From Hyphomicrobiaceae bacterium (GTDB lineage Bacteria > Pseudomonadota > Alphaproteobacteria > Rhizobiales > Hyphomicrobiaceae), in assembly GCA_021730785.1 (NCBI GenBank), contig JAKFWF010000049.1, positions 136,025 through 200,024 of the forward strand: a DNA stretch of 64,000 nucleotides, written 5' to 3'. A program made the translations under genes and the position numbers. The notes below the pieces were generated by a model, which was not told the DNA's origin, made no database searches, and saw nothing but the letters and a program-made list of their open reading frames with translations. Below are positions 23,598 to 41,314 of the stretch, piece after piece (position 1 is the stretch's first letter; each line of letters starts with the position of its first letter).

Positions 23598-23751
23598 GTG
23601 CGCGGGGTCTCGTCAGCCAACTCATGCCAGCCCTTCGGCGGCACTGACGCGATGTTCGCAGGGCCGATGCCCGGATGCAATCACAGAACAGCTTGTCCGT
23701 GACGATGGGCTCGGTCATGGTTGCCGGGCATCACTTCAGGACGAGTGAGAG

Positions 23752-23949
23752 ATGGGCGCTGATATCGTCAACCTGCGAACCGCTCGCAAGCGCAAGGTCC
23801 GTGCCGAACGTGAGGCACAGGCTGCGGAAAATCGCGCCCGGTTTGGACAGTCGAAAAGCGAGAAGCAGGCGCACCAGAAGTCCAGCGACCTGGATGCCCG
23901 CCGCCTCGACCAGGCCAAGCGGGAGGCGCGGAACGACGATGTCGACTGA
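23752..23949 (+). CDS. DUF4169-like small basic protein
   Basis: MGADIVNLRTARKRKVRAEREAQAAENRARFGQSKSEK... matches my memory of the DUF4169 N-terminal consensus (IVNLR.ARK...R..KE..A..NR..FG). Confidence 0.7.
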   Translation: MGADIVNLRTARKRKVRAEREAQAAENRARFGQSKSEKQAHQKSSDLDARRLDQAKREARNDDVD

Positions 23950-24199
23950 CGACGCGGGCCACGATGCGTCGGCTCGGGCGCGCCCCGTCAAGCGCTCGTT
24001 CTCGATCGCCGGCCACAAGACCTCGATCAGCCTTGAGGCGGCATTTTGGGAGGCGCTGCGCGAGGCTGCCGCCCGCGACAACGTCTCACTGGCGAGCCTC
24101 GTCCAGCGCATCGACCAGACGCGGGGCAGTGCCGGCCTGTCGAGTGCAGTCAGGGTCTGGCTGCTACGGGATGCGCGTCGCACTCACTTGCCGCTTTGA
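23939..24199 (+). CDS. ribbon-helix-helix (RHH_4-type) domain protein
   Basis: The ATG at 23939 overlaps the DUF4169 gene by 11 nt. KRSFSIAGHKTSISLEAAFWEALREAAARDNVSLASLVQRID is the RHH_4 pattern. Confidence 0.7.
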   Translation: MSTDDAGHDASARARPVKRSFSIAGHKTSISLEAAFWEALREAAARDNVSLASLVQRIDQTRGSAGLSSAVRVWLLRDARRTHLPL

Positions 24200-27100: not shown

Positions 27101-28155
27101 CCCGCCGCCAGACGCTGGAACGCTTCGGGTGGCTTGACGGCACCTTTGCCGCCCAGAAGCTGGTCGACGTCGATCCAGCGGGCGGTCAGCTCGGTCTGCA
27201 CGTCGATGGTGCCTTGCCAGGAAATCTTGGCGCTGCCGGCAACCAGCTGCGGTTTGCCGTCCTGTTCGAAGGCAAGTCCAAGGTCGGTGATCTGCGCAGC
27301 CTGCGTATCGGCGGTCACGGCGGCGCGCAATTCGATCGGTACCCGTGCCGGCGTGGCATCCGTCGCCGCGGCCGCGGCAACGCCGCCGATGGCGCTCGGC
27401 ATGAAGCCAAGCTGGCCAGTCAATTGGCCCTCGAGTCTGGCACGCCCCGACAAGTCGGCTAGTCGCCCATCGAACGTGTAGGTATTGGTCGTCGCCGGCA
27501 CGCTGACCTGCGCCTTCATGCGCAAGCCGCCATCGGCTTCGAAGGTGGTCGTCGATGCTTTCAGCTCATGGCGCGCGCCGGCCCAGTTGAAAACGCCCTT
27601 GAACTTGAAAGGGCCATCGAGCGCCGCGACATTGAGTTCGCCGGTGACGCCATCGACACGAACGAGCTCACGTCCGGTCGAATCATCGATCGACACCGTG
27701 CCCTCGGTGATCACCACGGACTGCAAGGCCACGTCGCTTGGAATGAACGGCAGCGCGGTCCGCGAGATCGACAAGGCTTGCCAGTTGCCGCCGCCTTCGG
27801 CATTCAGCCGCAACTTCAAGGTCGGCCGGCGCAGCTCGATTTCCCGGGCTTCGATCGCGCCGCGCAGGAGCGGGGCGGGCGACAGCCACAGCGTGAAATC
27901 ATCGGCCCGGAAAAAGGGCTCGCCGGTTTGTCCGACGACATCGGCCAAACGTACTTTCTCGAAGCGCACAAAGGGTGTCGGCAGGAGCCGCAGGTTGACG
28001 GTACCGGCCACCCGCACCTCGCGGCCGAGCACGCGCGAGGCTTCCTCCTCGAAGACGCCGCGGTAGCTCGTCCAGTCGACGAAGTGGGGCACCGCGAACA
28101 ATGCACAGAGCACTGCCACCAGGACACCACCGATCCACAGGAGAACGTTGTTCAT
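24184..28155 (-). CDS. AsmA-family outer-membrane-biogenesis protein (1323 aa) with a Pro/Ala-rich C-terminal tail
   Basis: The ATG at 28155 is preceded by GGGGAGG. It has an N-terminal TM anchor (LLWIGGVLVAVLCALFAV), a long beta-rich body, a C-terminal AsmA-like region, then a coiled segment and a PA-rich tail. Confidence 0.85.
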   Translation of the reverse strand: MNNVLLWIGGVLVAVLCALFAVPHFVDWTSYRGVFEEEASRVLGREVRVAGTVNLRLLPTPFVRFEKVRLADVVGQTGEPFFRADDFTLWLSPAPLLRGAIEAREIELRRPTLKLRLNAEGGGNWQALSISRTALPFIPSDVALQSVVITEGTVSIDDSTGRELVRVDGVTGELNVAALDGPFKFKGVFNWAGARHELKASTTTFEADGGLRMKAQVSVPATTNTYTFDGRLADLSGRARLEGQLTGQLGFMPSAIGGVAAAAATDATPARVPIELRAAVTADTQAAQITDLGLAFEQDGKPQLVAGSAKISWQGTIDVQTELTARWIDVDQLLGGKGAVKPPEAFQRLAAGLTALAPARGRGLTSLKADQLTLGGESLGGAAAVVESSDGVVRLSDLQLGLPGGTRAQLKGLLPTADTFDGDIVLRGANLARLLTWFGHGAALVEGRSEGVFSLKSKLAIGQQSIAFKDAFASLGSAVITGGIAYRWSDRPRLDVVIEGDQIDLGLVSPRALDLKARLREVTGGAPAPAADPAQAAPFAFDVQKQDATLRIRAGRLLDADRDLRAVDVDATLINGRLILQRLRFNSGNGLEIDAEGEISNVGARARGGLRGTLGVSDKAAIGELVELFEQTPDAAHVKRMETLALARLAWTVRFGEVNKEAAKDAQPSSRSPAEIWLDGAVLGRRMTATVRLAGGVRDWRQNNLQLTVAIERPDWQQVRAFLTSGSPETGAAAAKPAPPVDAGPSRARLQLKADGQPDQSLSSYLKLEDETFDAGLSGRLVLGSDAITSAEGELQVRAADAALALAALGLSAANLPAVGIDGAVDLALKDGTLKVTPSALEVAGAIVGGEVLVTRVQGQERHRIEGRIVASQASIPRLFDLLADARAPAQPDASSQIWPGATFNFAILDRFEGRVRLEAADLDLTPALVLTRGSIVGEFAPGKVDIVSLEGDLLGTRMTSRWLVEKAAAGANLNGTVKVDGARLDLLPAGRTGAGKSAPGGKATVTATVSGRGLTPRSLVAALTGKGEIDVAKGETGGMSPLILRRVSDDAVNGRRPVTVEAIEQGVVELIADPAPELRVELGNRKLAFDIADGVITMRPFTLSTPEGRATNRTTIELARLKIDSEWKLEEQLEKPGSKPAVPGTKTLAALPPITIVFVGPLSSLGALEPVVSVDSLVRELSVRRIERDVEELERLRRVDEERAKIEAERRAAAAAAAAIQSAAPAQPAATPAAVPAPQAPPAIVGPIAPAPLSGVPQVLTPAPQQGANGTPGATPIEPLPPVAGPKQRPPTSRELQPRQVPSSQQLDNSRTQDVFKRQSGK

Positions 28156-28397
28156 GTCCTCCCCGACTCTGATTTTGTGGAGTGCGCCACGCCCATCGCG
28201 GTCACCAAGCAATCTTCAGTCAGAACGGCAGCACCTAGCGTCTCCTAAAGCATGCTCCAGATCGGCGGGCAACGCCCGATCGGACGTTTCACTTGTAACA
28301 TATGATGTGAGAACGTTCACTTCGCCATGCAACACTGAGTTGTGGGTCGTGCGTGTGAGCCCGGTTGCGGCCACATAGGGAGTGCTATGCTCGCTGG

Positions 28398-30794
28398 ATG
28401 TCAGCGAATCGCCCCCAGATACGTCCCGGACCAAGTCCTGAGCCCATGCAACCCGTGGATGCCCCCGCATTGACTGCGGGCTCGATTTCGGCGCGCGCCA
28501 TGCAGCGCCCGCCCGCGCCCTATTTGACGGGCATCAATCCAGAGCAGCGCCGGGCCGTGGAAACGCTCGACGGCCCGGTGCTGGTGCTGGCGGGCGCCGG
28601 CACCGGCAAGACCCGGGTATTGACCACCCGGATCGCGCATATCCTGGCGTCGAACCGCGCGCGCCCCCACGAAATTCTCGCCGTCACCTTCACCAACAAG
28701 GCGGCGCGCGAGATGAAGGAGCGCATCGGCCATCTGATCGGCGGTGCCGTGGAGGGCATGGGCTGGCTCGGCACGTTCCACTCACTTGGTGTCAAGATCA
28801 TCCGCCGCCATGCCGAACTGGTCGGCCTCAAGAACGGCTTCACGATCCTCGATCCTGACGACCAGTTGCGCCTGATCAAGCAGGTGATCGAGGCCGCCGG
28901 CGTCGACAAGGAGCGCTGGCCGGCACGGCAGTTCGCCACCATGCTCGATGGCTGGAAGAATCGCGGCGTGATCCCGGAGAAAGTGCCCGCCGGCGAGGGC
29001 GGTTTTGCCGGCGGCAAGGGTCGCGAGCTCTATGCCGCCTACCAGAAGCGGCTGAAGGAGCTCAACGCCTGCGACTTCGGCGATCTGTTGCTCGAAGGGT
29101 TGCGGCTGTTCCTGGAGAACCCCGACGTTCTCGCTGACTACCAGTGCCGCTTCCGCTTCATCCTGGTCGATGAGTACCAGGATACCAACGTCGTCCAATA
29201 CATGTGGCTGCGGCTGCTGGCCCAGGGCTCGCCCAACATCTGCTGCGTCGGCGACGACGATCAATCAGTGTATGGCTGGCGCGGCGCCGAGGTCGACAAC
29301 ATCCTGCGATTCGACAAGGACTTTCCCGGGGCTGCCGTCATTCGCCTCGAGCGCAACTATCGCTCGACCGGACACATCCTGGCGACCGCCTCCGGGTTGA
29401 TCGCCAAGAACAAGGGGCGGCTCGGCAAGACGCTGTTCACCGATGGCGATGATGGCAACAAGGTTGCGGTCACCGGCGTTTGGGACGACGAGGAGGAAGC
29501 CCGCATCATCGCCGACGACATCGAGGCGGCGCGCAAGGGCGGCCACAAGCTCAACCAGATCGCTATTCTGGTGCGCGCCTCGTTCCAGATGCGCTCGCTG
29601 GAAGACCGCTTCGTCACGCTCGGCCTGCCCTATCGGGTGATCGGTGGCCCGCGCTTCTACGAGCGCCAGGAAATCAAGGATGCCGTCGCCTATCTCGAAA
29701 TCGTCGCCAATCCGGCCAACGACCTGAAGTTCGAGCGCATCATCAACGTGCCCAAGCGCGGCCTCGGCGATACCACGGTCAAGCGCATCCACGAGCTTGG
29801 CCGGGCGCGCGATATGCCGATGTACCAGGCTGCCCGCATGGTCGCCCAATCGGACGAACTCAGCGGCAAGACGCGCAAGTCGCTGGCCGACCTGATCGCG
29901 GCGTTCGAGCGCTGGCGGTCGCAGATCGCCACCATGAAACACACCGAACTCGCCGAACTGATCCTCGACGAGAGCGGCTATACCTACATGTGGCAGTCGG
30001 ACAAGAGCCCGCAGGCCCAGGCACGGCTGGAGAACCTGAAGGAACTGATCCGCTTCATGCACCAGTTCGAGACGCTTGGCGCCTTCCTCGAGCACGTGTC
30101 GCTGGTGATGGATGTCGATGCCGGCAACGATGGGGACCGGGCATCGCTCATGACCCTGCATGCTGCCAAGGGCTTGGAGTTCGACACGGTCTACCTGCCG
30201 GGCTGGGAAGAAGGGCTCTTCCCCCACCAGCGCTCGCTCGACGAAAGTGGTCTCGCCGGTCTCGAGGAGGAGCGCCGGCTGGCCTATGTCGGCATCACGC
30301 GAGCAAGGCGGACGTCGAAGATCTCGTTCGCGCAGAACCGGCGCAACCGGGGCCTATTCGCGGCTGCCGTGCCGTCCCGCTTCATCGACGAATTGCCCGA
30401 GGCGAACGTGGAGGTGGTGGAGGCCAAGAGCCCGTTCGGCGGTGCCTACCAGAACTTCGGCGGCAGCTACGGCGGCAATCGCGGCTATGCGCCGAGCCGC
30501 TTCGACGAAACGCCGCCGCAAGCGCCGTTCCAGTCGACCTACCAGACGCCAGGCTGGCAGCGGGCCCAGCAGCAATGGAAGAAGGAAGGTGCAAAGAAGC
30601 CGCCCACCCAGATCGAGGGCAAGCTCGTCGCTTCATCGACCACCGTGCAAACGGCGTTCGCGATCGGCGACCGCGTGTTCCACCAGAAGTTCGGCTATGG
30701 CGCGGTGACCGTGGTCGACGGCAACATGCTGACGATCGAGTTCGAGAAAGCAGGCGCCAAGCGGGTGATGGCGGACTATCTCGAAAAGCCTTGA
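28398..30794 (+). CDS. uvrD: ATP-dependent DNA helicase UvrD/PcrA family
   Basis: Helicase motifs are present: LAGAGTGKTRVLT, FILVDEYQDTN, VGDDDQSVYGWRGA, LERNYRST, TLHAAKGLEFD, LAYVGITRAR. The start is uncertain (TTG 28365, or ATG at 28398, 28446 or 28500). Confidence 0.9.
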   Translation: MSANRPQIRPGPSPEPMQPVDAPALTAGSISARAMQRPPAPYLTGINPEQRRAVETLDGPVLVLAGAGTGKTRVLTTRIAHILASNRARPHEILAVTFTNKAAREMKERIGHLIGGAVEGMGWLGTFHSLGVKIIRRHAELVGLKNGFTILDPDDQLRLIKQVIEAAGVDKERWPARQFATMLDGWKNRGVIPEKVPAGEGGFAGGKGRELYAAYQKRLKELNACDFGDLLLEGLRLFLENPDVLADYQCRFRFILVDEYQDTNVVQYMWLRLLAQGSPNICCVGDDDQSVYGWRGAEVDNILRFDKDFPGAAVIRLERNYRSTGHILATASGLIAKNKGRLGKTLFTDGDDGNKVAVTGVWDDEEEARIIADDIEAARKGGHKLNQIAILVRASFQMRSLEDRFVTLGLPYRVIGGPRFYERQEIKDAVAYLEIVANPANDLKFERIINVPKRGLGDTTVKRIHELGRARDMPMYQAARMVAQSDELSGKTRKSLADLIAAFERWRSQIATMKHTELAELILDESGYTYMWQSDKSPQAQARLENLKELIRFMHQFETLGAFLEHVSLVMDVDAGNDGDRASLMTLHAAKGLEFDTVYLPGWEEGLFPHQRSLDESGLAGLEEERRLAYVGITRARRTSKISFAQNRRNRGLFAAAVPSRFIDELPEANVEVVEAKSPFGGAYQNFGGSYGGNRGYAPSRFDETPPQAPFQSTYQTPGWQRAQQQWKKEGAKKPPTQIEGKLVASSTTVQTAFAIGDRVFHQKFGYGAVTVVDGNMLTIEFEKAGAKRVMADYLEKP

Positions 30795-30816: not shown

Positions 30817-31263
30817 TCACGCGGCAGAGACGACCTGTTGCTCGCTTGGTGCGGCGCCACGGCTGAGCAATAGCAGATGTTCGATATGAGCGCCGAACGC
30901 CGCCCAGTTCAACGGCTTGATCAGGAATGACGTGGCGCCCGCGATCAGCGCCTGCTCGATGGCATCCCGGTCGCTCCGCCCCGTCAACACGACGATCGGG
31001 ATCTTCTTTGTCTCGGGAAAGCCTCGGACGCAGCCGATCAGGGCGCAGCCATTCAGCTTGGGCATATCCAGATCGACGATGGCGAGATCGAACTTCCTGT
31101 TCTTCAGCAGTTCGAAGGCTTGAAGCCCATCCTCCGCCTCCACCACCGTGGCGTTGAGATTGCGAATTTTGACGCTGACAGCCCGGCGGCACAGGCTGTC
31201 ATCGTCGGCAACCAGCACGTTCGGCATAGTCGTTATGGCAAGTTGCCTGGCGATACCGCTCAC
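30817..31263 (-). CDS. stand-alone response-regulator receiver (CheY-like) protein
   Basis: The GTG at 31263 is preceded by GGAGG with 5-nt spacing. Receiver residues are VLVADDD, the phospho-acceptor in LAIVDLDMP, VVLTG and IKP. There is no output domain. Confidence 0.85.
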   Translation of the reverse strand: MSGIARQLAITTMPNVLVADDDSLCRRAVSVKIRNLNATVVEAEDGLQAFELLKNRKFDLAIVDLDMPKLNGCALIGCVRGFPETKKIPIVVLTGRSDRDAIEQALIAGATSFLIKPLNWAAFGAHIEHLLLLSRGAAPSEQQVVSAA

Positions 31264-31287
31264 TTCAGCCTCCGGGTCTTCGACGCG

Positions 31288-32184
31288 TCAAAGTCGGTTT
31301 GGATTACGCTGCTGGCCGCACTCCGCCACGAGCCGCTCGAGTGATGAGCGATCGGCAAGGGGTGCGAACGACTCACGAGCCGTGCAGATCGCGTCTCGCA
31401 GGCGGGCCACTTCAAGGCCGCCAATCGCATCACGCTCGCCGCACTTCGCCTCGACATCCCGCGCGATCGCGGCCAAGTCGTGGGCGTGGATCATGGAGGC
31501 GCCGCCGGCAATCCTGTGGGCAATGCTCCTCAGGCCTGCGTTGTCGCCAACGGCGCAATCGCGTTCGAGCTGAGCATCGCATCGGCGGCACTCTTCCACA
31601 AAAATACTAAGCAATTCACCTGCCACGTCGAGATCGAAGTCCCGCACCAGGGCGCTCACCCCCTGCAACCACGCATCCACCTGGTCTGTAACCGGGTGAT
31701 GCAGGCCATGCCTGGTGGTCGGTCGGCCCCGGTGCGGCAGCCACTTGGCCATCACGGCCGCCAATTGCTGATCGGTATAAGGCTTTGCCAGGCACTCGTT
31801 CATGCCGGCCGCAAGACAGGCGGCGCGCTCGTCACGGTTGGCGTTGGCCGTGAGTGCAATGATGGGAAGCGGCGACCGTTGCTCGCAAGTCTCATACGCA
31901 CGAATGATCCGTGTTGCGGTCAGCCCGTCCATGACCGGCATCTGGCAATCCATCAGGATCGCGTCGAAACCGCCGACCTGGAACAGCTGGACCGCCTGCG
32001 CGCCGGTTTCGGCAACTTCGACCGAACACCCGAACTCGTCCAGATAGACCTGGAGGATCGCACTGTTGACCGGGTTATCCTCGGCAATGAGAACCCTGAC
32101 GTCCGCCAAACCCGGCGCAGCTAGTACTACGGCGCAGGCGGCGCTGCCAATTGCTGGTTGGTCTGTTGCCCTGCCGCTCGGCAT
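31288..32184 (-). CDS. receiver-HPt fusion phosphotransfer protein
   Basis: N-terminal REC domain (VLIAEDNPVN, ILMDCQMPVMDG, IIALTANA, AKP). C-terminal HPt-like four-helix region with the putative phospho-His in SIAHRIAGGASMIHA. Confidence 0.8.
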   Translation of the reverse strand: MPSGRATDQPAIGSAACAVVLAAPGLADVRVLIAEDNPVNSAILQVYLDEFGCSVEVAETGAQAVQLFQVGGFDAILMDCQMPVMDGLTATRIIRAYETCEQRSPLPIIALTANANRDERAACLAAGMNECLAKPYTDQQLAAVMAKWLPHRGRPTTRHGLHHPVTDQVDAWLQGVSALVRDFDLDVAGELLSIFVEECRRCDAQLERDCAVGDNAGLRSIAHRIAGGASMIHAHDLAAIARDVEAKCGERDAIGGLEVARLRDAICTARESFAPLADRSSLERLVAECGQQRNPNRL

Positions 32185-32210
32185 GGTGTCGGGTCCGGAC
32201 GCCTATCGCT

Positions 32211-32903
32211 CTATGCGTTACGATCAAGCAGAGCGCATTCCTGCAGGAATTCGCCGCGCGTTGTCTTGTCGGTCAGCATGTCGCCGTAGAATTCGGTGGT
32301 GACCATGCGGCTGGCGTGGCTCGCCCGCACGCCGCGCTGTGATTTGCACATGTGCACCGCACTGATCCGCACCGCCAGGCCGCGCGGCTTGGTGCGCTCC
32401 ATGATGAAGGCGCCGATCTGCTTGACGAGTTCTTCCTGGATCTGCAGGCGCGCCGAGAAATGGTCGACGATGCGATCATATTTCGACAACCCGATGATCT
32501 TGCCGTCCGCGGCCGGCAGCACGCCGATATAGGCTGAGCCGTAGATCGGCATCAGATGATGGGCACACGTTGAGCGCACGTCGATCGGGCCGGTCACGAT
32601 CAGCTGGTCGCTCTGGCCGACATTGTCGAACTCGGTGACGACCGGCGGTGCGTTGAACCGGCCGCGCATGATTTCTTCGACATACATCTTGGCCACCCGC
32701 GCCGGCGTGTCGCGCGTATTGTGGTCGTTGAGGTAGTCGATGCCCAGCACCTCGAACAGCTCGCCGATTTTCTGGGCGGCGGCGAACCGCATGAGCGAGC
32801 GCTCCGCCGCATTCAGCGGTGATGGCGTCGCTTCGTTGCACAGGCACGGCGGCACGGTGTCGCCAGCCACGCCCAGATGCGATTTCTTCAGTGCCATGGT
32901 CAT
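32211..32903 (-). CDS. folE: GTP cyclohydrolase I (type 1)
   Basis: DTPARVAKMY, the zinc/catalytic residues STCAHHLMP and AVHMCKSQRG, and GLSKYDRIV are present. Its ATG overlaps the TGA of the upstream PTPS-family gene (ATGA). Confidence 0.9.
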   Translation of the reverse strand: MTMALKKSHLGVAGDTVPPCLCNEATPSPLNAAERSLMRFAAAQKIGELFEVLGIDYLNDHNTRDTPARVAKMYVEEIMRGRFNAPPVVTEFDNVGQSDQLIVTGPIDVRSTCAHHLMPIYGSAYIGVLPAADGKIIGLSKYDRIVDHFSARLQIQEELVKQIGAFIMERTKPRGLAVRISAVHMCKSQRGVRASHASRMVTTEFYGDMLTDKTTRGEFLQECALLDRNA

Positions 32904-33286
32904 GATGCAATCCGAAGTCTGGAGGCGTGAATGGTGCAGCCTTCGGCACTGCCTTCGAACCCGCGGCGGACCTGCACGCGGTCGATGCCCGGCACCACCT
33001 GACTCAGTTCATTGAGCAGCCAACTGGTGACATTCTCCAGCGTCGGGACCTCGAGGCCTTCGACATCGTTCAGGTACTTGTGATCGACGCGCTTCTTGAT
33101 GCAATCGATCGCCGCCTCGACGTGATCGAGATTGTGCGACCAGCCGAATTTCGGATCCGGGGTGCCGTGCATGAAGACGCAGACGGTGAATGAATGGCCA
33201 TGCAATCCGGAAAACGGCGGCGTCTGATGCGCCGCTTCAAAAGTGAATTGTTTGAAAGTCTCGAGCATCCATGAACGGAGCAGCAC
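32900..33286 (-). CDS. 6-pyruvoyl-tetrahydropterin synthase / QueD family (COG0720) protein with a non-canonical active-site loop
   Basis: FTFEAAH ... GLHGHSF ... VDHKYLND blocks are present. The start is the GTG at 33286 (GGGAGG 4 nt upstream) or the ATG at 33268. Confidence 0.8.
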   Translation of the reverse strand: MLLRSWMLETFKQFTFEAAHQTPPFSGLHGHSFTVCVFMHGTPDPKFGWSHNLDHVEAAIDCIKKRVDHKYLNDVEGLEVPTLENVTSWLLNELSQVVPGIDRVQVRRGFEGSAEGCTIHASRLRIAS

Positions 33287-33537
33287 CCCGCCTCCCTGTA
33301 ATCTACGGGAGACGAATACAATGCCAGAAGTTAGAAACAGGATAAATTTTCTAGTTAATGATAAGTTGAAATATTCAATTCATTTATCTAAAATTCTTAA
33401 GTCGAGGGTGTGTTAGCTGTTAATTTTCTACACGCGATCAGAGTTCCGCGACTGTCGAATTTTTAGGTCGTCATTAACAGATCGCGTCTAGGATGCGCAC
33501 GCTGCTGAAGAAAAATTGAAAAGACGAGGCGATTGCC
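33287..33537. promoter_or_regulatory. AT-rich divergent control region between the PTPS-folE-REC operon and the pruR-like/kinase operon
   Basis: The sequence is strikingly AT-rich over about 33320-33420 in an otherwise high-GC window. It contains the inverted repeats TAGAAA-N10-TTTCTA (33332-33353) and TTGAA-ATA-TTCAA (33366-33378). No promoter boxes could be called with confidence. Confidence 0.4.
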
Positions 33538-34050
33538 ATGTTGACTCGCAGACATGCATGCTTGCTCGGTAGTGCTTTCATTGCCGGGCTCAACACGCAC
33601 AGTGCGCTGGCGCAAGCCATAACAGCCCCTACCGGTAAGGTAATCCTCACGATCGGTGGCCAGGTGGCAAACGGTGACAAGGGCCCGGTGGTGTTCGATC
33701 GCGACGGCCTCGAGGCGCTCGGCATGGACTCTTTCGAAACGATGACGCCCTGGTACGCCTCAAAGGTCAAATTCGAAGGCGTGTCCATGGCCAAGCTGAT
33801 GCGTGTGGTCGGCGCCAAAGGCCAGAAGCTGTCGGTTTCTGCGCTGAATGATTACACCACCGAAATCCCGATGGAAGATTTTGGCAAGTATAACGTCATT
33901 CTCGCATTGAAGCGCGATGGCCAGTACATGCCGGTGAGCGACAAAGGTCCACTGTTCATCGTCTATCCGTTCGACGCGAACCCAGAACTAAAGACTCAGA
34001 AGTACTACGGCCGTTCCGCCTGGCAGGTCGCAAGAATGGTCGTCGCTTGA
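33538..34050 (+). CDS. secreted SUOX-fold (molybdopterin-oxidoreductase-like) protein, PruR-type putative pterin-binding protein
   Basis: GAGG lies 8 nt upstream of the ATG. The signal peptide is MLTRRHACLLGSAFIAGLNTHSALA. The body (FDRDGLEALG ... TPW ... KFEGVSMAKLMRVVGAKGQKLSVSALNDYTTEIPMEDF ... ILALKRDGQYMPVSDKGPLFIVYPFD ... YYGRSAWQV) matches my memory of the small periplasmic Oxidored_molyb-like family. The mature protein has no Cys. Confidence 0.75.
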   Translation: MLTRRHACLLGSAFIAGLNTHSALAQAITAPTGKVILTIGGQVANGDKGPVVFDRDGLEALGMDSFETMTPWYASKVKFEGVSMAKLMRVVGAKGQKLSVSALNDYTTEIPMEDFGKYNVILALKRDGQYMPVSDKGPLFIVYPFDANPELKTQKYYGRSAWQVARMVVA

Positions 34051-34108
34051 ACCTCATTTTCAATCTTCCCATTTTCAGTTCGAGCGTTTTGACTGAGGCA
34101 TTAGCCGC

Positions 34109-36760
34109 ATGATCATTGCCCGCTATTTTTTAATTGGGGCGGTGGCTATCCTCGTCAGCGTTGTAGCTTATCTCAGCGTCCTGATGTCAGAGCGGGAAGC
34201 AGCGCTGACCGAAGCGTCGCGCTATAATCTGCAATGGAGTGCCAGCCAGGCCGCCATCGAGTCGTTGCGGTTGCAGACCGCGATTCATCGGTTCACCCAG
34301 ACCCCGGACTCGACCAGAGTGGACGATATCCGGCTGCGCTACGACATTCTCGTCAACCGCATGTCGCTGCTGAGCAATGGTGAATTCCTCCAGACCGTCG
34401 GCGACGATGCAAAGTCGCGAGCCGCGATCGACGAAGCGAAGTCCACGATCGCTGCCATCGCGCCCCTCGTCACTGCGGCCGAAACAGAAGGGACGGGCGC
34501 ACGAATCCTGACGGCCCTGCAACCGCTGAATGCCAAGTTCATACAATTGGCGTCGCAGGCCAACCGGCTCGGCGCCGAGCGTGTTGCCGACGAGCAGTCC
34601 GCGCTGTTTCGCCTGTACAAGTTGTTCTCGGCGCTGATCGGCGCGCTGCTGATGATCGGACTGGGCTTGATCGCCATGCTGTTCTGGCACAACAAGCAAT
34701 TGCGGGACGCCAAAAAATCCCTGGAAGCCTCCACCAGTCAGCTCCGTTCGGCGATCGAGGCGGCTGAAACCGCAAGCCGGGCCAAATCCGAATTTCTGGC
34801 GAACATGAGCCATGAAATCCGCACCCCCATGAATGGCGTGCTCGGCATGACCGACCTGCTCAAGCGATCGGCGCTGTCGGTCCGCCAGCAGCGCCTGGTG
34901 GACACGATCAGCAATTCGGCCAACACGCTGCTCAAGATCATCAATGATATCCTCGACATCTCGCGCATCGAGGCCGGCACCACCGAGCTCGACATCCACG
35001 ACGTCGACATCCGCCACTGCGTCGAAGGTGCGGTTGGCCTGTTCGCGGAACAGTTGCGCGGCAATGAAGTGGAACTGACGCTGTTCATCGCCAACGAAGT
35101 GCCAGATGTGGTGCGCAGCGACGGCGGCAGGTTGCGCCAGATCTGCGTCAACCTGCTCGGCAATGCGATCAAGTTCACGCCGCGAGGCGAGGTCGGCGTG
35201 CGCATTTCGGCGACGCCGATTGTAGATGGCGAATCGACGGTTCACTTCGAATTCCGCGACACCGGCATCGGCATGACCCCCGAGGTGATTGGCCGCATCA
35301 TGAAGCCCTTTGCGCAGGGTGATTCGTCGATCACTCGCAGGTTCGGCGGCACCGGGCTCGGATTGTCGATTTCCCAGCAGCTGGTCGCGATGATGGGCGG
35401 TAGGCTCACGATCACCAGCGAGCCGAACAAGGGCACTACGGTCTCCTTCGCATTGCCGATGAAGATTGCCAGCACCACTAAACCGGTCCGGGCTGACCAG
35501 GCACGCCTCGTTGGCCAACGCATCCTGGTGGTCGATGACCACGAGACCAACCGTGAGATCATCGCAAGTTACCTCGGGCGTGCCGGCGTCGTCGTCGATA
35601 CGGCGGCGACCGCCGACACCGCGCTCGCCATGCTGCAGCGGGAGCATGAGCGTGGCCGGTCGTATCACGTGCTGATCGCGGACCTGATCATGCCGCGTGT
35701 CAACGGCATGGAGTTGGTCAAAACCGTGCGGTCGGATGATGCGTTCGGCGACCTCAAGGTCGTCATGCTGACATCGATGAGCTGGAAGGGCGATGCCAGC
35801 CAAATGCGCAAGCTCGGCATTGCGGAGCACTTGATCAAGCCGGTCAGTCGGAATGAACTTCTGGATGCCGTTTCACGCGCCGTCTTCGTCAGCAGCATGC
35901 CGGAGCCGCTGATGGCGGGCCTGCACGGTTCGCCGCCGCTGCCCCACTACACGGGGCACGTGCTGCTGGCCGAGGACAATCCGGTCAACGTCGAAGTGGC
36001 AACAGAACATCTCAGTGGTTTTGGTTTGACCTTCGAAGTGGCCAGAAACGGCATCGAAGCCGTGGACCTGTTCAAGCGCGGACAGTTCGACCTTGTGCTG
36101 ATGGACATCCAGATGCCGGAATTGGACGGCGTCGGCGCGACCGAGCAGATCCGCACGTTCGCCAAGGAAAACGCACAGCCGCGCACGCCGATCGTGGCGG
36201 TGACCGCCAATGCCTACGAAGCCGACCGACGGCTCTGCCTGGCGGCCAACATGGATGGCTTCCTCAGCAAGCCGTTTGCCGAAAGCGCTTTCGAAGCTGT
36301 GCTCGCGCGATGGCTGCCGAAGTCTTTGGCGTCGAAACCATCGTCGCAATCGATGCGCGACGATCGCGACGACGACCTGGTCGCGCTGCCGCGGCCGGAC
36401 ATTGTGAGCCTCGACGACGAGGTCATCGCCGCGCTGAAGGCCCGGCGCCCGGCCCTCCTGGCGCGATTGATCAAGGTGTACCTCGACTTCGCCCCCTCGA
36501 CGATCAGCATCATGCGGACCGCGATCGACAATGAACACACGGAGTCGCTCGGCGCCGCAGCCCACAGCCTCAAGTCCAGTAGCGCCAACATCGGTGCGGT
36601 GCGAATCGCGGATTTCTGCCGGACGCTCGAAGTGATGGCGCGCGAGAGCAAACTCGGCGGCAGCGACGCGATCATGACAGCGCTCGAACGAGAGATAGTG
36701 CACGTGCGTGACTTGCTGACAAAGATCGAAGTGAAGGGCCTGGCAGAAGTGCGCGCCTGA
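34109..36760 (+). CDS. hybrid sensor histidine kinase (TM-periplasmic-TM, HisKA, HATPase_c, REC, REC, HPt)
   Basis: TM1 is about aa 5-25 and TM2 about aa 170-192, flanking a helical periplasmic domain of about 145 aa. H-box SEFLANMSHEIRTPMNG. N/G boxes NLLGNAIKFT, DTGIGM, GGTGLGLSIS. REC1 has its Asp in LIADLIMP and REC2 in VLMDIQMPELDG. The C-terminal HPt His lies in AAAHSLKSSSANIGA. Confidence 0.9.
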   Translation: MIIARYFLIGAVAILVSVVAYLSVLMSEREAALTEASRYNLQWSASQAAIESLRLQTAIHRFTQTPDSTRVDDIRLRYDILVNRMSLLSNGEFLQTVGDDAKSRAAIDEAKSTIAAIAPLVTAAETEGTGARILTALQPLNAKFIQLASQANRLGAERVADEQSALFRLYKLFSALIGALLMIGLGLIAMLFWHNKQLRDAKKSLEASTSQLRSAIEAAETASRAKSEFLANMSHEIRTPMNGVLGMTDLLKRSALSVRQQRLVDTISNSANTLLKIINDILDISRIEAGTTELDIHDVDIRHCVEGAVGLFAEQLRGNEVELTLFIANEVPDVVRSDGGRLRQICVNLLGNAIKFTPRGEVGVRISATPIVDGESTVHFEFRDTGIGMTPEVIGRIMKPFAQGDSSITRRFGGTGLGLSISQQLVAMMGGRLTITSEPNKGTTVSFALPMKIASTTKPVRADQARLVGQRILVVDDHETNREIIASYLGRAGVVVDTAATADTALAMLQREHERGRSYHVLIADLIMPRVNGMELVKTVRSDDAFGDLKVVMLTSMSWKGDASQMRKLGIAEHLIKPVSRNELLDAVSRAVFVSSMPEPLMAGLHGSPPLPHYTGHVLLAEDNPVNVEVATEHLSGFGLTFEVARNGIEAVDLFKRGQFDLVLMDIQMPELDGVGATEQIRTFAKENAQPRTPIVAVTANAYEADRRLCLAANMDGFLSKPFAESAFEAVLARWLPKSLASKPSSQSMRDDRDDDLVALPRPDIVSLDDEVIAALKARRPALLARLIKVYLDFAPSTISIMRTAIDNEHTESLGAAAHSLKSSSANIGAVRIADFCRTLEVMARESKLGGSDAIMTALEREIVHVRDLLTKIEVKGLAEVRA

Positions 36761-36781: not shown

Positions 36782-38128
36782 TCAATTGCCTTGCTGGGCA
36801 ACGCCGGTTTCCAGCGCCAACACATGGCCGGCAAGGTAGAGCGATCCGCAGATAAGGATGCGCTTTGCCCCGCCGACAGCGCGATCGGCGCGATGCAGCG
36901 CGCTGCCGAGATCGGCCGCGGCTTCGGCTTTGAAGCCCAAGGTGCGGGCGAGGCCCGCCAATGCATCGGCCGCGAACGGCGCCTCGTGGGCGCCTGGGAT
37001 CGGCACGGCGAACAGGTGCGTCACCTGACCTTGGAACGGCTGCAGGAATCCACCGGCATCCTTCTGGCCCATCATGCCGACGATCATAACGAGCGGTTTT
37101 GGCGATCGCTCCTCGAGGTCGGCGACGGTTTGCGCCAGCGCCTGCCCGCCGGCCGGGTTGTGCCCGCCATCGAGCCAGATCTCGGCGTCGGCCGACAGCC
37201 CGCTGGTCAGGCGGCCGCCGGCCAGCCGCTGCATGCGCGCCGGCCAGACGACCTCGATCAGCCCGCGCTCGATGGCCTTGGGATCAAGACCGAACTCGTC
37301 GAGTTGCAACGCAGCGGCGATTGCGGTGCCCGCGTTCATGATCTGGTGGCGTCCGAGCAAGGCCGGCCGCGGCAGATCGAGCAGCGTGTCACCGGTCTGG
37401 AAGACCAGGCGGCCGCGCTGCTCGAAGGCGTCGTAATCCTCGCCGCACACTGTGAGCGGCGCGCCGATGCGCCGGGCGACGTCTCGGATGGCATCGAGGC
37501 CATCTGCGTCCTGCGGCGCGATGATCGCTGGCACGCCCCGCTTCAAAATGCCGGCCTTTTCGACCGCAATTTTGGCGACCGTATCACCCAGCTTATCGGC
37601 GTGATCCATGGAGACGGGCGTGATGATGGTGAGCCGCGGTTTCGCCACCACATTGGTCGTATCGGCGCGGCCGCCGAGGCCCACTTCCAATATCACCGCA
37701 TCGGCCGGCGTCTCGCTGAAGGCAAGGAACGCGGCGGCCGTGGTGATTTCGAAGAAAGTGACGGCAGCACCCGCATTCACACGTTCGACCCGCGACAGGA
37801 CCTCGACCAGTTCATGCTCGCCGATCGGCACGGCGCGGCCATCGGGACCGGCAAGCTGGATGCGCTCGTGGAACCGCACGAGGTGGGGGGATGTGTAGGC
37901 ATGCACCCGGTTGCCGGCCGCTTCGAGCATGGCCTTCAGGAATGCGGTGGTCGAGCCCTTGCCGTTGGTGCCGGCAATGTGGATGACGGGGGGCAAGGCC
38001 GTGTGCGGATTGCCGAGCTTTTCGAGCAATGCCACGATGCGATCGAGTGACAGATCGATCAGCAGCGGATGCAAGGTGCGCATGCGCGCCAGCAGTGCTT
38101 CGCTCGATTCGGGCGGAGATGTGCGCAA
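36782..38128 (-). CDS. folC: bifunctional folylpolyglutamate synthase / dihydrofolate synthase
   Basis: P-loop HIAGTNGKGST, AYTSPHLVRFHERI, and Mur-ligase middle and C-terminal domains. TTG start 7 nt after the accD stop. Confidence 0.85.
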   Translation of the reverse strand: MRTSPPESSEALLARMRTLHPLLIDLSLDRIVALLEKLGNPHTALPPVIHIAGTNGKGSTTAFLKAMLEAAGNRVHAYTSPHLVRFHERIQLAGPDGRAVPIGEHELVEVLSRVERVNAGAAVTFFEITTAAAFLAFSETPADAVILEVGLGGRADTTNVVAKPRLTIITPVSMDHADKLGDTVAKIAVEKAGILKRGVPAIIAPQDADGLDAIRDVARRIGAPLTVCGEDYDAFEQRGRLVFQTGDTLLDLPRPALLGRHQIMNAGTAIAAALQLDEFGLDPKAIERGLIEVVWPARMQRLAGGRLTSGLSADAEIWLDGGHNPAGGQALAQTVADLEERSPKPLVMIVGMMGQKDAGGFLQPFQGQVTHLFAVPIPGAHEAPFAADALAGLARTLGFKAEAAADLGSALHRADRAVGGAKRILICGSLYLAGHVLALETGVAQQGN

Positions 38129-38135
38129 AGGATCG

Positions 38136-39215
38136 TTATCCGGCCGGCTTGGACGTTGGCTTGGCGGCCGGGTCAGTTGGCTTTACCGGTGCGGCGGTTG
38201 TCATGGTCCGCGGTGACGCCGACGTGGCGGCCGGCGCCTTCGTGTCACTGCCATTGCCAACCGGCGCCTCGATCACGACGCCCTGTGCCGGCGCCGCCGC
38301 ATGGCCGTTGAGCGCGACATGCCCGTTCATGGTCTTGGGCTTGGCTGGCACTTTCACCAGCGAACTGTTGGCCGTCATCAACCGGCACAGCCGCCCGAGC
38401 GTCGCCTTCATCTTGTGGCGATGGACGACCATGTCGATCATGCCGTGCGCGAGCAGGTATTCGGCGCGCTGGAACCCATCGGGCAGCTGTTCGCGAATGG
38501 TCTGCTGGATCACGCGCGGGCCGGCGAAACAGATGAGCGCGCCGGGCTCGGCGATATGCACGTCGCCGAGCATCGCATAGGACGCGGTGACGCCGCCCGT
38601 CGTCGGATTGGTCAGCACCACGAGATAGGGCAGTCGCTCTTCGCGCAGACGCTGCACGGCGATGGTGGTGCGCGGCATCTGCATGAGCGACAGGATACCC
38701 TCCTGCATGCGTGCGCCGCCCGAGGCCGCGAACAGAATGAACGGCGTCTTCAGTTCGACCGCGCGCAGCATGCCGGCGATCACCGCCTGTCCTGCCGCCA
38801 TGCCGAGGGATCCGCCGACGAAACGCATGTCGTGGGCGGCAGCCACCACCGCCTGCTCCTCCAGGCGGCCTTCGCCGACCAGCACCGAATCCTCGAGTTC
38901 GGTCTTCGCGCGCGCTTCCTTGAGCCGCTCGGGGTAGCGCAGGCTATCGCGGAACTTGAGCGGATCGGCCGGCACGCTCGGCACGGCAACCTTCGTATAC
39001 TCGCCGTCATCGAACAGATGGGCCAGGCGCTGCTGCGCCGTCATGCGATCGTGGTGATTGGAACCCGGAAACACGTACTGGTTGTTGGCAAGGTCCTTTC
39101 CGAGCACCATCTGGCCGGACTCGGGGTCCGTGCGCCACATGTCGTCGGGCACCTCGCGCTTCGCCCCGAGGAAACCTCGAATCTTCGGACGAACGACGTT
39201 ATTGATCCAGTTCAC
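38136..39215 (-). CDS. accD: acetyl-CoA carboxylase carboxyltransferase beta subunit (Cys-less N-terminus, extended C-terminus)
   Basis: The N-terminus [12 protein letters not shown] is comparable to E. coli MSWIERIK. The carboxyltransferase core is present ([11 protein letters not shown] ... SGGARMQEG ... [17 protein letters not shown]). GTG start at 39215. Confidence 0.9.
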
Positions 39216-39338
39216 GTTCAGTCAGCTCCTCGACGCGGGCTGCGCTACCTCAGCGCCTTCATGGCGGCTAACGAAGCGCCACCGTGGCGCGCCGGCCGCC
39301 ACTATATATTTGGTCTGCGACAGGAGTTGCAGGTGGCC

Positions 39339-40166
39339 TCACATGCCGTCCCGCAATCCGCTCGCCAATGCCTGGACGATACCTAGGACGGATTGCACCG
39401 TCTTTCCAGTGGGCTGACCCGCCTTGTCCAGCGACAAGGCAATCGTGGTAACCAAGATCGAGCCGACCACGACCGCATCCGCACCCTTGGCAATAGCACG
39501 GACCTGTTCCGGCGACTTGACCCCAAACCCAACGGCGACCGGTAACTTCGTCGATTTCTTGATGCGCGCAACCTGGGCGTGCACATCGGCAGCATCCGGC
39601 GCGGCTGTTCCCGTAATGCCGGTGATCGACACATAGTAGACAAAGCCGCTGGTGTTGGCGAGCACCGCCGGCAGCCGCTTTGCGTCGGTCGTCGGCGTCG
39701 CAAGTCTGATGAAATTCAAGCCTTTGGCCACCGCCGGCAGGCACAATTCGTCGTCCATTTCCGGTGGCGCATCGACGATGATCAGGCCATCGACGCCGGC
39801 ATCCTTGGCATCGTTCAGGAATGCATCCACCGGGTACACGTAGATCGGGTTGAGGTAGCCCATCAGCACGATCGGCGTCGTTTGATCCTTGGCGCGGAAC
39901 GCCTTCACTGCAGCAATGGTCTTTTTCATGGTCTGCCCGGCCTTCAAGGCGCGCAAGCCGGCGGCCTGGATGGCGGGGCCGTCGGCCATGGGGTCGGAGA
40001 ACGGCATGCCGACCTCGATGATATCGGCACCAGCGGCAGGCAGGCCTTCCAAGATGCGGGCGAAGGTTGCGGCATCGGGATCGCCCGCCATCACGAATGT
40101 GACGAGGCCGGCACGGCGCTCGGCACGCAAGGCGGCAAATCGCTTATCGATGCGGGTGTCGGTCAT
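39339..40166 (-). CDS. trpA: tryptophan synthase alpha chain
   Basis: [48 protein letters not shown] and the C-terminal VGFGV...GADAVVVGS blocks. ATG at 40166. Confidence 0.9.
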
Positions 40167-40300
40167 TGAAGGGCGTTCGCTTCTCTCCGGGGCAGGCTCT
40201 GTGTCCATGACCGCGTGATCCCGCGGTTGCAAGGGAATTATACCCGGGAACGCCCGCAGCCGCTAGGAAATTCACGGTCTGGCGCTTGTCTGAGCGGTCC

Positions 40301-41314
40301 CTACTTGGTTGGAATGAGGTATTTTGCCGCCGCCGATGACAGCGGCCCGCCGATCACGCAAGGCAGCGCCAATTCCACCTGCCCCAGGGCACCGGCCGCG
40401 ATGCAACCGGCAGCGATCAGCGTGGTGCCGGCTTGCGCCCACCAGGCGAGGTCACGGTTGCGCTGCGGCCCTTTAACCCGCAATTCCTCGATGCTGGTGA
40501 CGGCTGCCTTGCGGATCCGCGCCGTGTCGGACACTTCCACCGCCTCGATCAGATCGCGCAGGTTGGTCGAAACCACTTTGCCGCGGATGCTGGACTGTTC
40601 CTTCAGGTGCCGCAGCAGATCGAGATCGCGCGTCGCATTGTTGGTGAGCGTCCACTTCGCCATGCCGGCGATGGTGAGCTTCTCGATGTCGTTCTCCTCG
40701 CTCGACCAAGCAAGGACCGCGATGATGCGGTCGACCGGCTCCGGCGACCGGGTGGCGAAGTAGTAGCCCCAGTTGGTATCGAGCACGACCGGCCCCTTTT
40801 CCAGCGGCGCCACCTGCAAGACCGGCAGCTTGCCCGTCAGATAGCGGTCGATCAGCACGGTGCGGGCCGGCATGCGCTCGGAGAACTTAGCAAGCAGCGC
40901 CTTCCAGTCGAGCAAACCGGAATAGGCGATCGCCCTTACGATCGCCACCTGGTCTTCCGGCGGGATCGGGAACATGCGCGCGATCAGGATCTCGGCCATC
41001 TCGGGATTGGCGCCGAGCACACCGGCGATGAAGCCAACGTGGATGCCGGCTGCATCCATGTCGCGAAACAGCCCGAGCGCACTCATGGCATGCACGACTT
41101 CGGGCAGCCGATCCGGCTCGGGATTGGTGTGATAGCGGTCGATGAACCGCAGCACATGCTCGGGCGCGGTGAAGGGCGGCTTCTTTGCCACCGCCGGCCT
41201 AGCTGTAGCCGCTGCATGGCTCTGCCTGGGCTGTGCGGCATGCACCGCCTGCGGCGCAACCAGGAACAGGCCGGCACTCATGATCAGCGCTTGGGCGATG
41301 CGGCGACGCGGCAC
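40301..41314 (-). CDS. hypothetical secreted protein with a C-terminal membrane anchor (337 aa)
   Basis: Signal peptide MPRRRIAQALIMSAGLFLVAPQAVHA and a hydrophobic C-terminus (AGTTLIAAGCIAAGALGQV...). No family recognised. It starts 13 nt downstream of the DUF2783-like gene. Confidence 0.65.
   Translation of the reverse strand: MPRRRIAQALIMSAGLFLVAPQAVHAAQPRQSHAAATARPAVAKKPPFTAPEHVLRFIDRYHTNPEPDRLPEVVHAMSALGLFRDMDAAGIHVGFIAGVLGANPEMAEILIARMFPIPPEDQVAIVRAIAYSGLLDWKALLAKFSERMPARTVLIDRYLTGKLPVLQVAPLEKGPVVLDTNWGYYFATRSPEPVDRIIAVLAWSSEENDIEKLTIAGMAKWTLTNNATRDLDLLRHLKEQSSIRGKVVSTNLRDLIEAVEVSDTARIRKAAVTSIEELRVKGPQRNRDLAWWAQAGTTLIAAGCIAAGALGQVELALPCVIGGPLSSAAAKYLIPTK

Follow-up and report, generated by a model that had tools for sequence, protein, structure and literature searches.

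Introduction

Which pterin does the periplasmic receptor PruR bind in vivo, by what route does that pterin reach the periplasm, and how are reduced pterins supplied in bacteria without the PruA reductase? A review of PruR-based pterin signalling, itself a recent discovery, leaves these three questions open (PMC13259868), and a locus in a 64,000-nucleotide stretch of DNA from a Hyphomicrobiaceae bacterium (GenBank assembly GCA_021730785.1, contig JAKFWF010000049.1, positions 136,025 to 200,024; hereafter, the window) offers, together with its relatives, a genetic handle on all of them. An earlier note on this DNA, made from the sequence alone, had described a gene for a PruR-type periplasmic protein followed by a hybrid histidine kinase and, on the opposite strand, an operon encoding a protein of the COG0720 (6-pyruvoyl-tetrahydropterin synthase; PTPS) family, a FolE, a receiver-histidine phosphotransfer (REC-HPt) protein and a stand-alone receiver (REC). 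It had proposed that a pterin receptor here feeds a phosphorelay. From the computational analysis reported below, we consider it fairly likely that PruR controls the kinase through a sensor of the DcpA type, and that the operon coupled to this pair probably supplies the pterin that serves as signal.

The note knew of no described pterin-responsive two-component system with this architecture, but the literature does contain one, described bioinformatically. According to the main text of Labine et al. (PNAS 2024; PMC11194511), more than 5,500 unique PruR-partner pairs were surveyed, and in 23-29% of them the partner combines a periplasmic domain of the DcpA type with a TorS/BaeS-like kinase; the class was named PruR-DTB, and response-regulator genes are often found near it. 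A 2026 review repeats the class (PMC13259868). The main texts of these two papers make no mention of folE, COG0720, cyclohydrolase or pyruvoyl genes, exporters or short-chain dehydrogenases/reductases (SDRs) linked to pruR, and the divergent operon appears to be undescribed so far.

Results

Layout of the locus

The six open reading frames of the earlier note are all present where it had placed them, and their domain assignments are all highly significant. The module and its parts are as follows:

33538-34050, plus strand: pruR, 170 aa (Pfam Oxidored_molyb, E=1.4e-6, above the cut-off)
34109-36760, plus strand: hybrid histidine kinase of PruR-DTB type, 883 aa (Pfam and NCBIfam matches)
34109-34708, plus strand: kinase residues 1-200, DcpA-type sensor module (hydropathy, motif and homology)
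34781-35464, plus strand: HisKA (residues 225-290) and HATPase_c (338-452) core (Pfam, E=1.7e-22 and 3.3e-29)
35513-36298, plus strand: kinase receivers REC1 (residues ~469-590) and REC2 (618-730) (Pfam, two receivers, 3.1e-46)
36467-36709, plus strand: C-terminal HPt of the kinase (residues 787-867, AAHSLKSSS; Pfam Hpt, E=8.1e-13)
33287-33537, no strand: divergent intergenic region of 251 bp, 40.6% GC, presumed to hold the promoters of both operons
32900-33286, minus strand: COG0720 gene (T-fold, QueD-derived; Pfam PTPS, E=1.3e-19)
32211-32903, minus strand: folE paralogue, 230 aa (Pfam GTP_cyclohydroI, E=5.2e-45)
31288-32184, minus strand: REC-HPt gene, 298 aa (Pfam)
30817-31263, minus strand: stand-alone REC, 148 aa, with a GTG start and a GGAGG Shine-Dalgarno (SD) sequence, last gene of the divergent operon (Pfam)

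The spacing is as tight as had been described. The stop of the PTPS-like gene and the start of folE overlap in ATGA, 26 nt separate folE from the REC-HPt gene, 24 nt separate the latter from the REC gene (with GGAGG before its GTG), and 58 nt lie between pruR and the kinase gene. The AT-rich divergent spacer, put at 250 bp in the earlier note, measures 251 bp.

The periplasmic protein

The 170-aa protein was recognised by the Oxidored_molyb profile, and its closest relatives are solved PruR structures, namely PruR of Agrobacterium tumefaciens (PDB 7KOS, E=6.7e-55) and Klebsiella PruR with neopterin (PDB 7RKB, E=1.5e-51), each aligned over residues 25-169. Pterin binding, with reduced forms preferred, is a hallmark of PruR proteins. 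In the A. tumefaciens pocket a Tyr and a Trp (Y104, W160) sandwich the pterin ring and an Asn (N102) provides a hydrogen bond, next to a conserved Trp (W70). Residues W72, N104, Y106 and W162 of the window protein align with A. tumefaciens W70, N102, Y104 and W160, respectively. By these alignments, the protein is a genuine PruR orthologue and more than a mere sulfite oxidase (SUOX)-fold protein. The Pfam match itself, together with the database annotation of orthologues as 'molybdopterin-dependent oxidoreductase', could instead suggest that this is no ligand receptor and that it belongs with the small molybdoenzymes of the periplasm, such as YedY/MsrP or SUOX. However, the profile match spans only ~85 positions, the nearest relatives are PruR structures that have a truncated molybdenum cofactor site and bind neopterin, and the mature protein is free of Cys, as the earlier note had observed (the sole Cys, residue 8, lies within the signal peptide). 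The molybdoenzyme explanation has next to no likelihood and is effectively excluded.

An export signal is present at about residues 1-25 (33538-33615; MLTRRHACLL...ALA, followed by QA), with a hydrophobic N-terminus. Its assignment to the Sec pathway was less secure, as MLTRRHACLL contains a twin-arginine, and the signal may direct export through either Sec or twin-arginine translocation (Tat). The twin-arginine is common to locus L001 (related loci are given L numbers where they must be told apart) and ~9 of 20 relatives and is absent from the rest, and A. tumefaciens PruR functions with Sec signals. Tat export of a folded, ligand-loaded PruR, if true, would alter the model developed below. 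A Tat-type signal as compensation for a missing exporter was considered and rejected, given that cassettes containing an EamA transporter carry twin-arginine signals too.

The kinase and its sensor module

Hydropathy analysis placed hydrophobic segments of the kinase at residues ~5-27 and 170-193, with a periplasmic part of ~145 aa (~28-169) between them. The proposed arrangement of two transmembrane helices around a periplasmic domain, followed by HisKA-HATPase-REC-REC-HPt, is thus confirmed. The sensor contains a WX7E motif (W43-SASQAAI-E51), and W43, Q47, E51, R54, R84 and F173 are invariant in an alignment of 24 partner sensors. Kinase residues 1-200 share 29-63% identity with the sensor modules of all 36 pruR-adjacent partners, which comprise 7 kinases and 29 GGDEF-EAL proteins. 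The window sensor shares 41% identity with that of the GGDEF-EAL partner of L003, compared with 31% for some of the kinase partners; output domains have therefore been swapped on a common sensor. A database search with residues 1-200 alone returned nothing at E<=1e-5, which reflects a limit of the search tool; the question is also addressed by the published census.

An AlphaFold2 model of the sensor, built from the single sequence, has four long helices (predicted local distance difference test score, pLDDT, 76). The PDB entries nearest in fold are kinase sensors built as four-helix bundles, among them QseE-QseG and LytS-XylFII, though the matches are weak (E ~0.01). QseE-QseG and LytS-XylFII are kinase sensors under the control of accessory periplasmic proteins. 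With moderate confidence, the sensor is predicted to be a periplasmic four-helix bundle. The pruR-kinase pair has every testable feature of the PruR-DTB class: pruR just upstream, two transmembrane helices, a periplasmic domain of ~138-150 aa, WX7E, a four-helix bundle (in the model) and a TorS/BaeS-like kinase.

The best NCBIfam matches of the kinase were BarA (443 bits), TorS (419 bits), ArcB and LuxQ, all below the equivalog cut-offs. Its catalytic core is intact, with His235 in SHEIRTPMN, the N box at 348, G1 at 384 and G2 at 414. In each of the four receivers of the module, the acidic pocket, the phospho-Asp, T/S and K are canonical, and the phospho-acceptor His is present in both HPt domains. 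The separate REC-HPt protein is paralogous to the REC2-HPt end of the kinase itself, its receiver being 47.5% identical to kinase residues 618-737. A 49%-identical orthologue of the stand-alone REC occupies the same position after folE in L002/L107.

The FolE paralogue

The FolE of the divergent operon scored 140-151 bits against NCBIfam FolE models with cut-offs of 162-202, below all four. The Zn ligands and catalytic residues of FolE (E. coli C110, H112, H113, S135/K136, Q151/E152, H179 and C181) are all kept. The residue beside the Zn-ligand Cys, E111, is replaced by Ala, giving C-A-H-H instead of the C-E-H-H found in E. coli, Thermus and every solved FolE. CAHH was present in 43 of 43 orthologues near pruR or PTPS genes and in each of the 120 top database homologues (163/163). 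The pruR or PTPS loci also contain four FolEs of weak relationship, and these read CEHH. The orthologues are named 'GTP cyclohydrolase I' by PGAP, without the FolE label. In Microvirga, the clade occurs in several copies per strain. Microvirga sp. VF16 has CAHH folE copies, 70-72% identical, on three large replicons (NZ_CP069355.1, NZ_CP069356.1 and NZ_CP069358.1), each with two places that match CAHH folE, and M. arabica has two distinct members of the clade. The CAHH FolE is an accessory paralogue in a discrete clade, distinct from the housekeeping form, and the same holds for the clade of the COG0720 protein described next. On pMVF16-4 (L113), the folE copy lies amid IS5 and IS6 transposases and a TnpB gene.

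The Cys-less COG0720 protein

The COG0720 gene starts at a GTG (33286) with a GGGAGG SD sequence, and an alternative ATG at 33268 fits the N-termini of orthologues; metagenome gene callers (L109-L111) start it further upstream, yielding 147 aa versus 128 or 122. Four signatures are described for this family: CxxxHGH in PTPS-I/QueD, CxxxxxHGH in PTPS-II, ExxHGH in PTPS-III and FGPAQ in PTPS-IV (the last, PMC5445326). The window protein reads AAHQTPPFSGLHGH and matches none of them. At the PTPS-I site it has PPFSGLHGH, the Cys loop being gone, and it scores 57.6 against TIGR03367 (cut-off 89.25), falling below all NCBIfam cut-offs; Pro stands at the PTPS-II Cys position; a near-invariant Ser20 stands at the PTPS-III Glu position (Glu in 2 of 120 homologues); and FGPAQ is absent. 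The clade may correspond to PTPS-V, described as 'function still unclear'.

In a profile alignment with QueD of E. coli and P. aeruginosa, the protein lacks six residues, and with them the 'vpeghkC' loop that bears the catalytic Cys27; close to its C-terminus it has three residues more than solved QueD. The resulting Cys-free 8-residue loop is found in 119 of 120 database homologues. The Zn-ligand His triad (H14, H23, H25) is invariant, as are H45, N46, E78, N79, R102, E109 and C111 in an alignment of 34 sequences. A structural model (pLDDT 87.5) superposes on E. coli QueD with TM-scores of 0.84-0.88. This pattern of conservation indicates neofunctionalisation, not decay. The COG0720 protein is no canonical PTPS or QueD, and the conversion of GTP to a 6-substituted tetrahydropterin put forward in the earlier note is therefore hypothetical. 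In RefSeq records (Aminobacter plasmid pANY103a, L106 6386-6757; a Microvirga ossetica plasmid, L112 8202-8855), the Cys-less protein carries the label '6-carboxytetrahydropterin synthase, queuosine biosynthetic process' and PruR that of a 'molybdopterin-dependent oxidoreductase'.

Deletion of the catalytic loop and variability of D62 and H63 would also fit a protein that is not an enzyme at all, such as a pterin-binding, chaperone or regulatory T-fold that holds dihydroneopterin triphosphate or a tetrahydropterin (H4-pterin), or one with different chemistry, for example C2' epimerisation of neopterin to monapterin. The ligand of A. tumefaciens PruR is thought to be a PruA-dependent H4-monapterin derivative, and the step that forms such favoured derivatives is undefined there (PMC13259868). 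On the other hand, the Zn His triad and the new polar residues are invariant, the predicted fold is confidently preserved, and translational coupling to folE suggests consecutive enzymatic steps. We regard a non-enzymatic role or different chemistry as quite improbable.

Linkage of the enzyme pair to pruR

A gene-neighbourhood survey, which the earlier note had called for, showed that the linkage with folE and COG0720 genes is conserved in many genomes and recurs in more than 60 loci. CAHH folE lies within ~1 kb of pruR in 26 of 36 pruR-centred loci (26/34 when only loci with upstream DNA are counted), in most cases divergent from pruR, in some pointing the same way as the dcpA-type gene. A metagenome scan seeded on the signature of the Cys-less COG0720 clade yielded 62 clade loci. 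Where both flanks extend for 3 kb or more, 17/17 carry pruR and/or a DcpA-type partner, mostly GGDEF-EAL. Seven loci for which one flank reaches 3 kb were unlinked, which we attribute to contig ends: the PTPS gene lies within ~1 kb of a contig end in 6 of the 7, and the contig of L050 perhaps ends before pruR is reached. Outgroups of PTPS-II type (L099 and L100; CSNKNWHGH) have folE and no pruR. When three contexts were chosen by FolE, blind to pruR, two had pruR divergent from folE-PTPS and the third had folE followed by an ABC exporter.

Gene order in these cassettes takes several forms, including PTPS-folE-(EamA)-pruR-partner, partner-pruR divergent from PTPS-folE, and pruR-dcpA-PTPS in Microvirga. 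Because the order varies while the linkage stays, these arrangements argue for selection on co-location. The partners so linked are mostly GGDEF-EAL proteins, and biosynthetic linkage is no special trait of the kinase version. At L057 7950-11784 there is a PTPS-folE-dcpA-like operon, and no pruR was detected in this 16-kb locus, possibly a PruR-independent or trans-encoded variant.

Relatives carry further genes within the cassette, among them one for an EamA transporter (13 loci) and one for a PACE efflux protein (5 loci). The EamA, PACE and ABC genes, from three unrelated families, are candidate pterin exporters, and two kinase-type relatives additionally end the operon with an SDR gene:

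L101 9321-10010; L104 8623-9600; L107 4229-5350; L112 7694-8143; L113 7693-8142; P0153 context: exporters (EamA/DMT, PACE, ABC) beside the pair
L107 3254-4072; L104 12878-13669: SDR ending the pruR-kinase(-EamA) operon in two kinase-type relatives

In L107 the full order is SDR-EamA-kinase-pruR, divergent from PTPS-folE-REC. An EamA-like gene of the window (10083-10781) was excluded from the module, being 29% identical and 23 kb off.

The survey also bears on whether folE and the COG0720 gene merely serve housekeeping synthesis of folate and queuosine, as FolE and QueD, and adjoin the sensor genes by chance. PGAP labels their orthologues as a QueD-type queuosine enzyme and 'GTP cyclohydrolase I', and folC lies directly downstream of the kinase gene. 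However, the QueD signature CxxxHGH has been lost through the loop deletion, the FolE falls under all equivalog cut-offs and carries the clade-specific CAHH, one strain bears copies on three replicons, and chance adjacency sits poorly with linkage in more than 60 loci. Moreover, no queC, queE or queF occurs in the Pfam-annotated neighbourhoods, and neither folC nor uvrD is adjacent to the module in any relative. We consider a housekeeping origin very improbable and effectively excluded.

Composition, control region and flanking genes

The earlier note had counted about 50 A/T-ending codons in pruR and inferred that the module is compositionally distinct. The count is exactly 50 of 170; the distinctness is modest and the argument weak. 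The GC content at third codon positions is 0.71-0.72 in pruR, the PTPS-like gene and the REC-HPt gene, versus 0.76-0.85 in neighbours, and is ordinary in folE (0.83) and the kinase gene (0.80). Horizontal acquisition as the cause was left as a weak explanation, as third-position GC is only slightly lower, and in 3 of the 6 genes. The 64-kb window holds no mobility genes; PruR systems are common on plasmids, and the location of the module differs among relatives.

A search for operators in the 251-bp divergent region found only short imperfect repeats, and the one sigma-70-like match there was not above shuffled expectation.

In the window, the module is flanked by uvrD on one side (28365-30794) and by a folC-accD-trpA block on the other (36782-40232). 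The folC/uvrD flanks accompany it in 0 of 36 related loci. Because neither flank travels with the module, its chromosomal position differs between lineages. Upstream of uvrD lies a gene for an AsmA-family protein of 1342 aa with a long Ala/Pro-rich C-terminal tail (24184-28212, minus strand), and the open reading frames at 23731-24183 and 40301-41314 have no Pfam match. Three short metagenome contigs (L109-L111; ERZ1758440; SRR8745628, SRR8745617) carry protein-identical pruR, kinase and PTPS-like genes; the source organism therefore recurs in public metagenomes.

Discussion

Homology shows the identities of the parts, the integrity of their active and phospho-acceptor sites and the conservation of their linkage. 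The proposal of a pterin receptor that feeds a phosphorelay is supported in its main lines by PruR itself, the WX7E sensor, the phospho-acceptors and the linkage, although the architecture had already been named. What follows on the ligand, on the reaction of the enzyme, on which way regulation runs and on the path of the phosphoryl groups is inferred. The FolE paralogue would convert GTP to 7,8-dihydroneopterin triphosphate, as suggested by its family membership and by catalytic residues that are kept except for E111A. The coupled Cys-less T-fold enzyme may then convert dihydroneopterin triphosphate to a cassette-specific pterin, plausibly a tetrahydropterin. PTPS/QueD-type chemistry gives 5,6,7,8-tetrahydropterins directly, without a separate ring reduction; therefore, a fully reduced ligand would be possible without a PruA-type reductase. 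The pterin would have to get to the periplasm, and relatives encode EamA, PACE or ABC exporters at the corresponding position. Pterin-loaded PruR would bind the sensor at its WX7E face and shift the kinase/phosphatase balance, by analogy with PruR-DcpA. Phosphoryl groups are predicted to pass from His235 to an Asp of REC1 or REC2, on to an HPt (the kinase's own or that of the separate REC-HPt protein) and from there to the stand-alone receiver. The extra REC-HPt might act as a second branch or a buffer, and the output would lie outside the 64-kb window. A single transcription unit holds folE, the PTPS-like gene and the relay genes, so the capacity to make the signal and the capacity to transduce it are probably co-regulated.

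Several observations weigh against this account. Our reading of the literature turned up no experimental work on any PruR-DTB kinase, and the structural matches of the sensor model are statistically non-significant. The catalytic Cys of the COG0720 protein is gone, which makes its enzyme activity uncertain, and the Asp-His pair of the old triad is relaxed (D62 in 29 and H63 in 27 of 34 sequences). The window module has no exporter, SDR or reductase (folC abuts the kinase gene); the REC-HPt gene is absent from the nearest syntenic relatives, L107 and L108; and the 64 kb contain no other receiver, kinase or effector-domain output regulator. Comparison of the intergenic regions of seven syntenic loci revealed no conserved motif save the SD sequence of the PTPS-like gene. 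Finally, CAHH folE occurs with an exporter and without pruR within 7-8 kb in L112, L113 and the P0153 context, and therefore the enzyme pair may have a PruR-independent role.

This last observation favours the main rival, in which the relay regulates production of an exported pterin that has a role of its own (redox or protective), while PruR and the kinase sense the redox state of the periplasm or a different pterin, perhaps of exogenous origin, and tune that production. Co-transcription of the relay genes with the enzymes would suit it as well, and some PruR bacteria may respond to exogenous pterins (PMC13259868). However, all 17 well-covered loci have the Cys-less gene in linkage with pruR or the partner gene, in several gene orders, as expected of one pathway, and we hold the rival to be unlikely. 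Regulating the enzymes and feeding the receptor can coexist, in that a feedback loop could do both.

The reading in which the operon supplies the pterin sensed by PruR can be carried further. In a self-contained circuit that rests on a hitherto unrecognised pterin branch, CAHH FolE and the Cys-less enzyme would make a specific tetrahydropterin without a PruA-type reductase, and this would be exported (in relatives, by the embedded EamA, PACE or ABC transporters) and its periplasmic level or redox state read by PruR into the relay, as a pterin autoinducer or a periplasmic redox reporter comparable to LuxS/LuxPQ. We offer this extension tentatively, as possible though doubtful. If true, the enzyme pair would identify the long-sought physiological PruR ligand, and a tetrahydropterin product would explain how reduced ligand is supplied in bacteria without PruA.

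What appears to be new here is a conserved layer of biosynthesis and export, with two unrecognised enzyme subclades, that accompanies kinase and c-di-GMP outputs alike. The two co-transcribed, clade-specific enzymes have a product that can be determined, sister cassettes supply candidate exporters, and in vitro the read-out of a phosphorelay can be assayed more readily than the turnover of c-di-GMP. Systematic misannotation came to light as well, with the Cys-less enzyme labelled QueD/queuosine and PruR a molybdoenzyme; both labels are probably wrong and have probably propagated.

Comparison with known systems

The PruR-DTB class, exemplified by the kinase of Ruegeria pomeroyi DSS-3, shares with the window the order of pruR and its partner, the sensor, a kinase with receivers and nearby response regulators, and is defined by genome survey only. 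Relative to its description, the window kinase ends in REC-REC-HPt, lacks a PAS domain and is accompanied by separate REC-HPt and REC genes. In the PruR-DcpA system of A. tumefaciens (Atu3496-Atu3495), PruR shares ~54-55% identity and its pocket residues with the window protein, the partner carries a homologous sensor with WX7E, and pterin-dependent binding of PruR to the sensor has been demonstrated (PMC11194511). The output there is GGDEF-EAL (c-di-GMP), whereas in the window it is a phosphorelay. In strain C58, folE (Atu1749) and pruA are unlinked to pruR, and the gene upstream of pruR is hypothetical.

QueD (E. coli 4NTK/4NTM and P. aeruginosa 2OBA) is closest to the Cys-less protein in sequence (E ~1e-25, 37-40% identity) and structure, and likewise clusters physically with folE. 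It differs in that the Cys27 loop is kept, whereas the window protein has gained new invariant residues and has pruR, dcpA/kinase genes and exporters as neighbours, not queC, queE or queF. The tetrahydrobiopterin pathway (GTP cyclohydrolase I-PTPS-sepiapterin reductase) follows the same logic of FolE, COG0720 and SDR that is seen in L107 and L104, although the PTPS-II signature and the SDR are missing from the window module.

TorT-TorS-TorR of E. coli and LuxP-LuxQ-LuxU-LuxO of Vibrio likewise pass a signal from a periplasmic binding protein to a hybrid kinase and through a His-Asp-His-Asp relay. TorT and LuxP have periplasmic binding-protein folds unrelated to PruR, with trimethylamine N-oxide (TMAO) and autoinducer-2 (AI-2) as ligands; the TorS sensor is different and larger, and the window kinase misses all equivalog cut-offs widely. 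LuxS with LuxPQ nevertheless provides a precedent for a self-made signal that is sensed via a periplasmic receptor.

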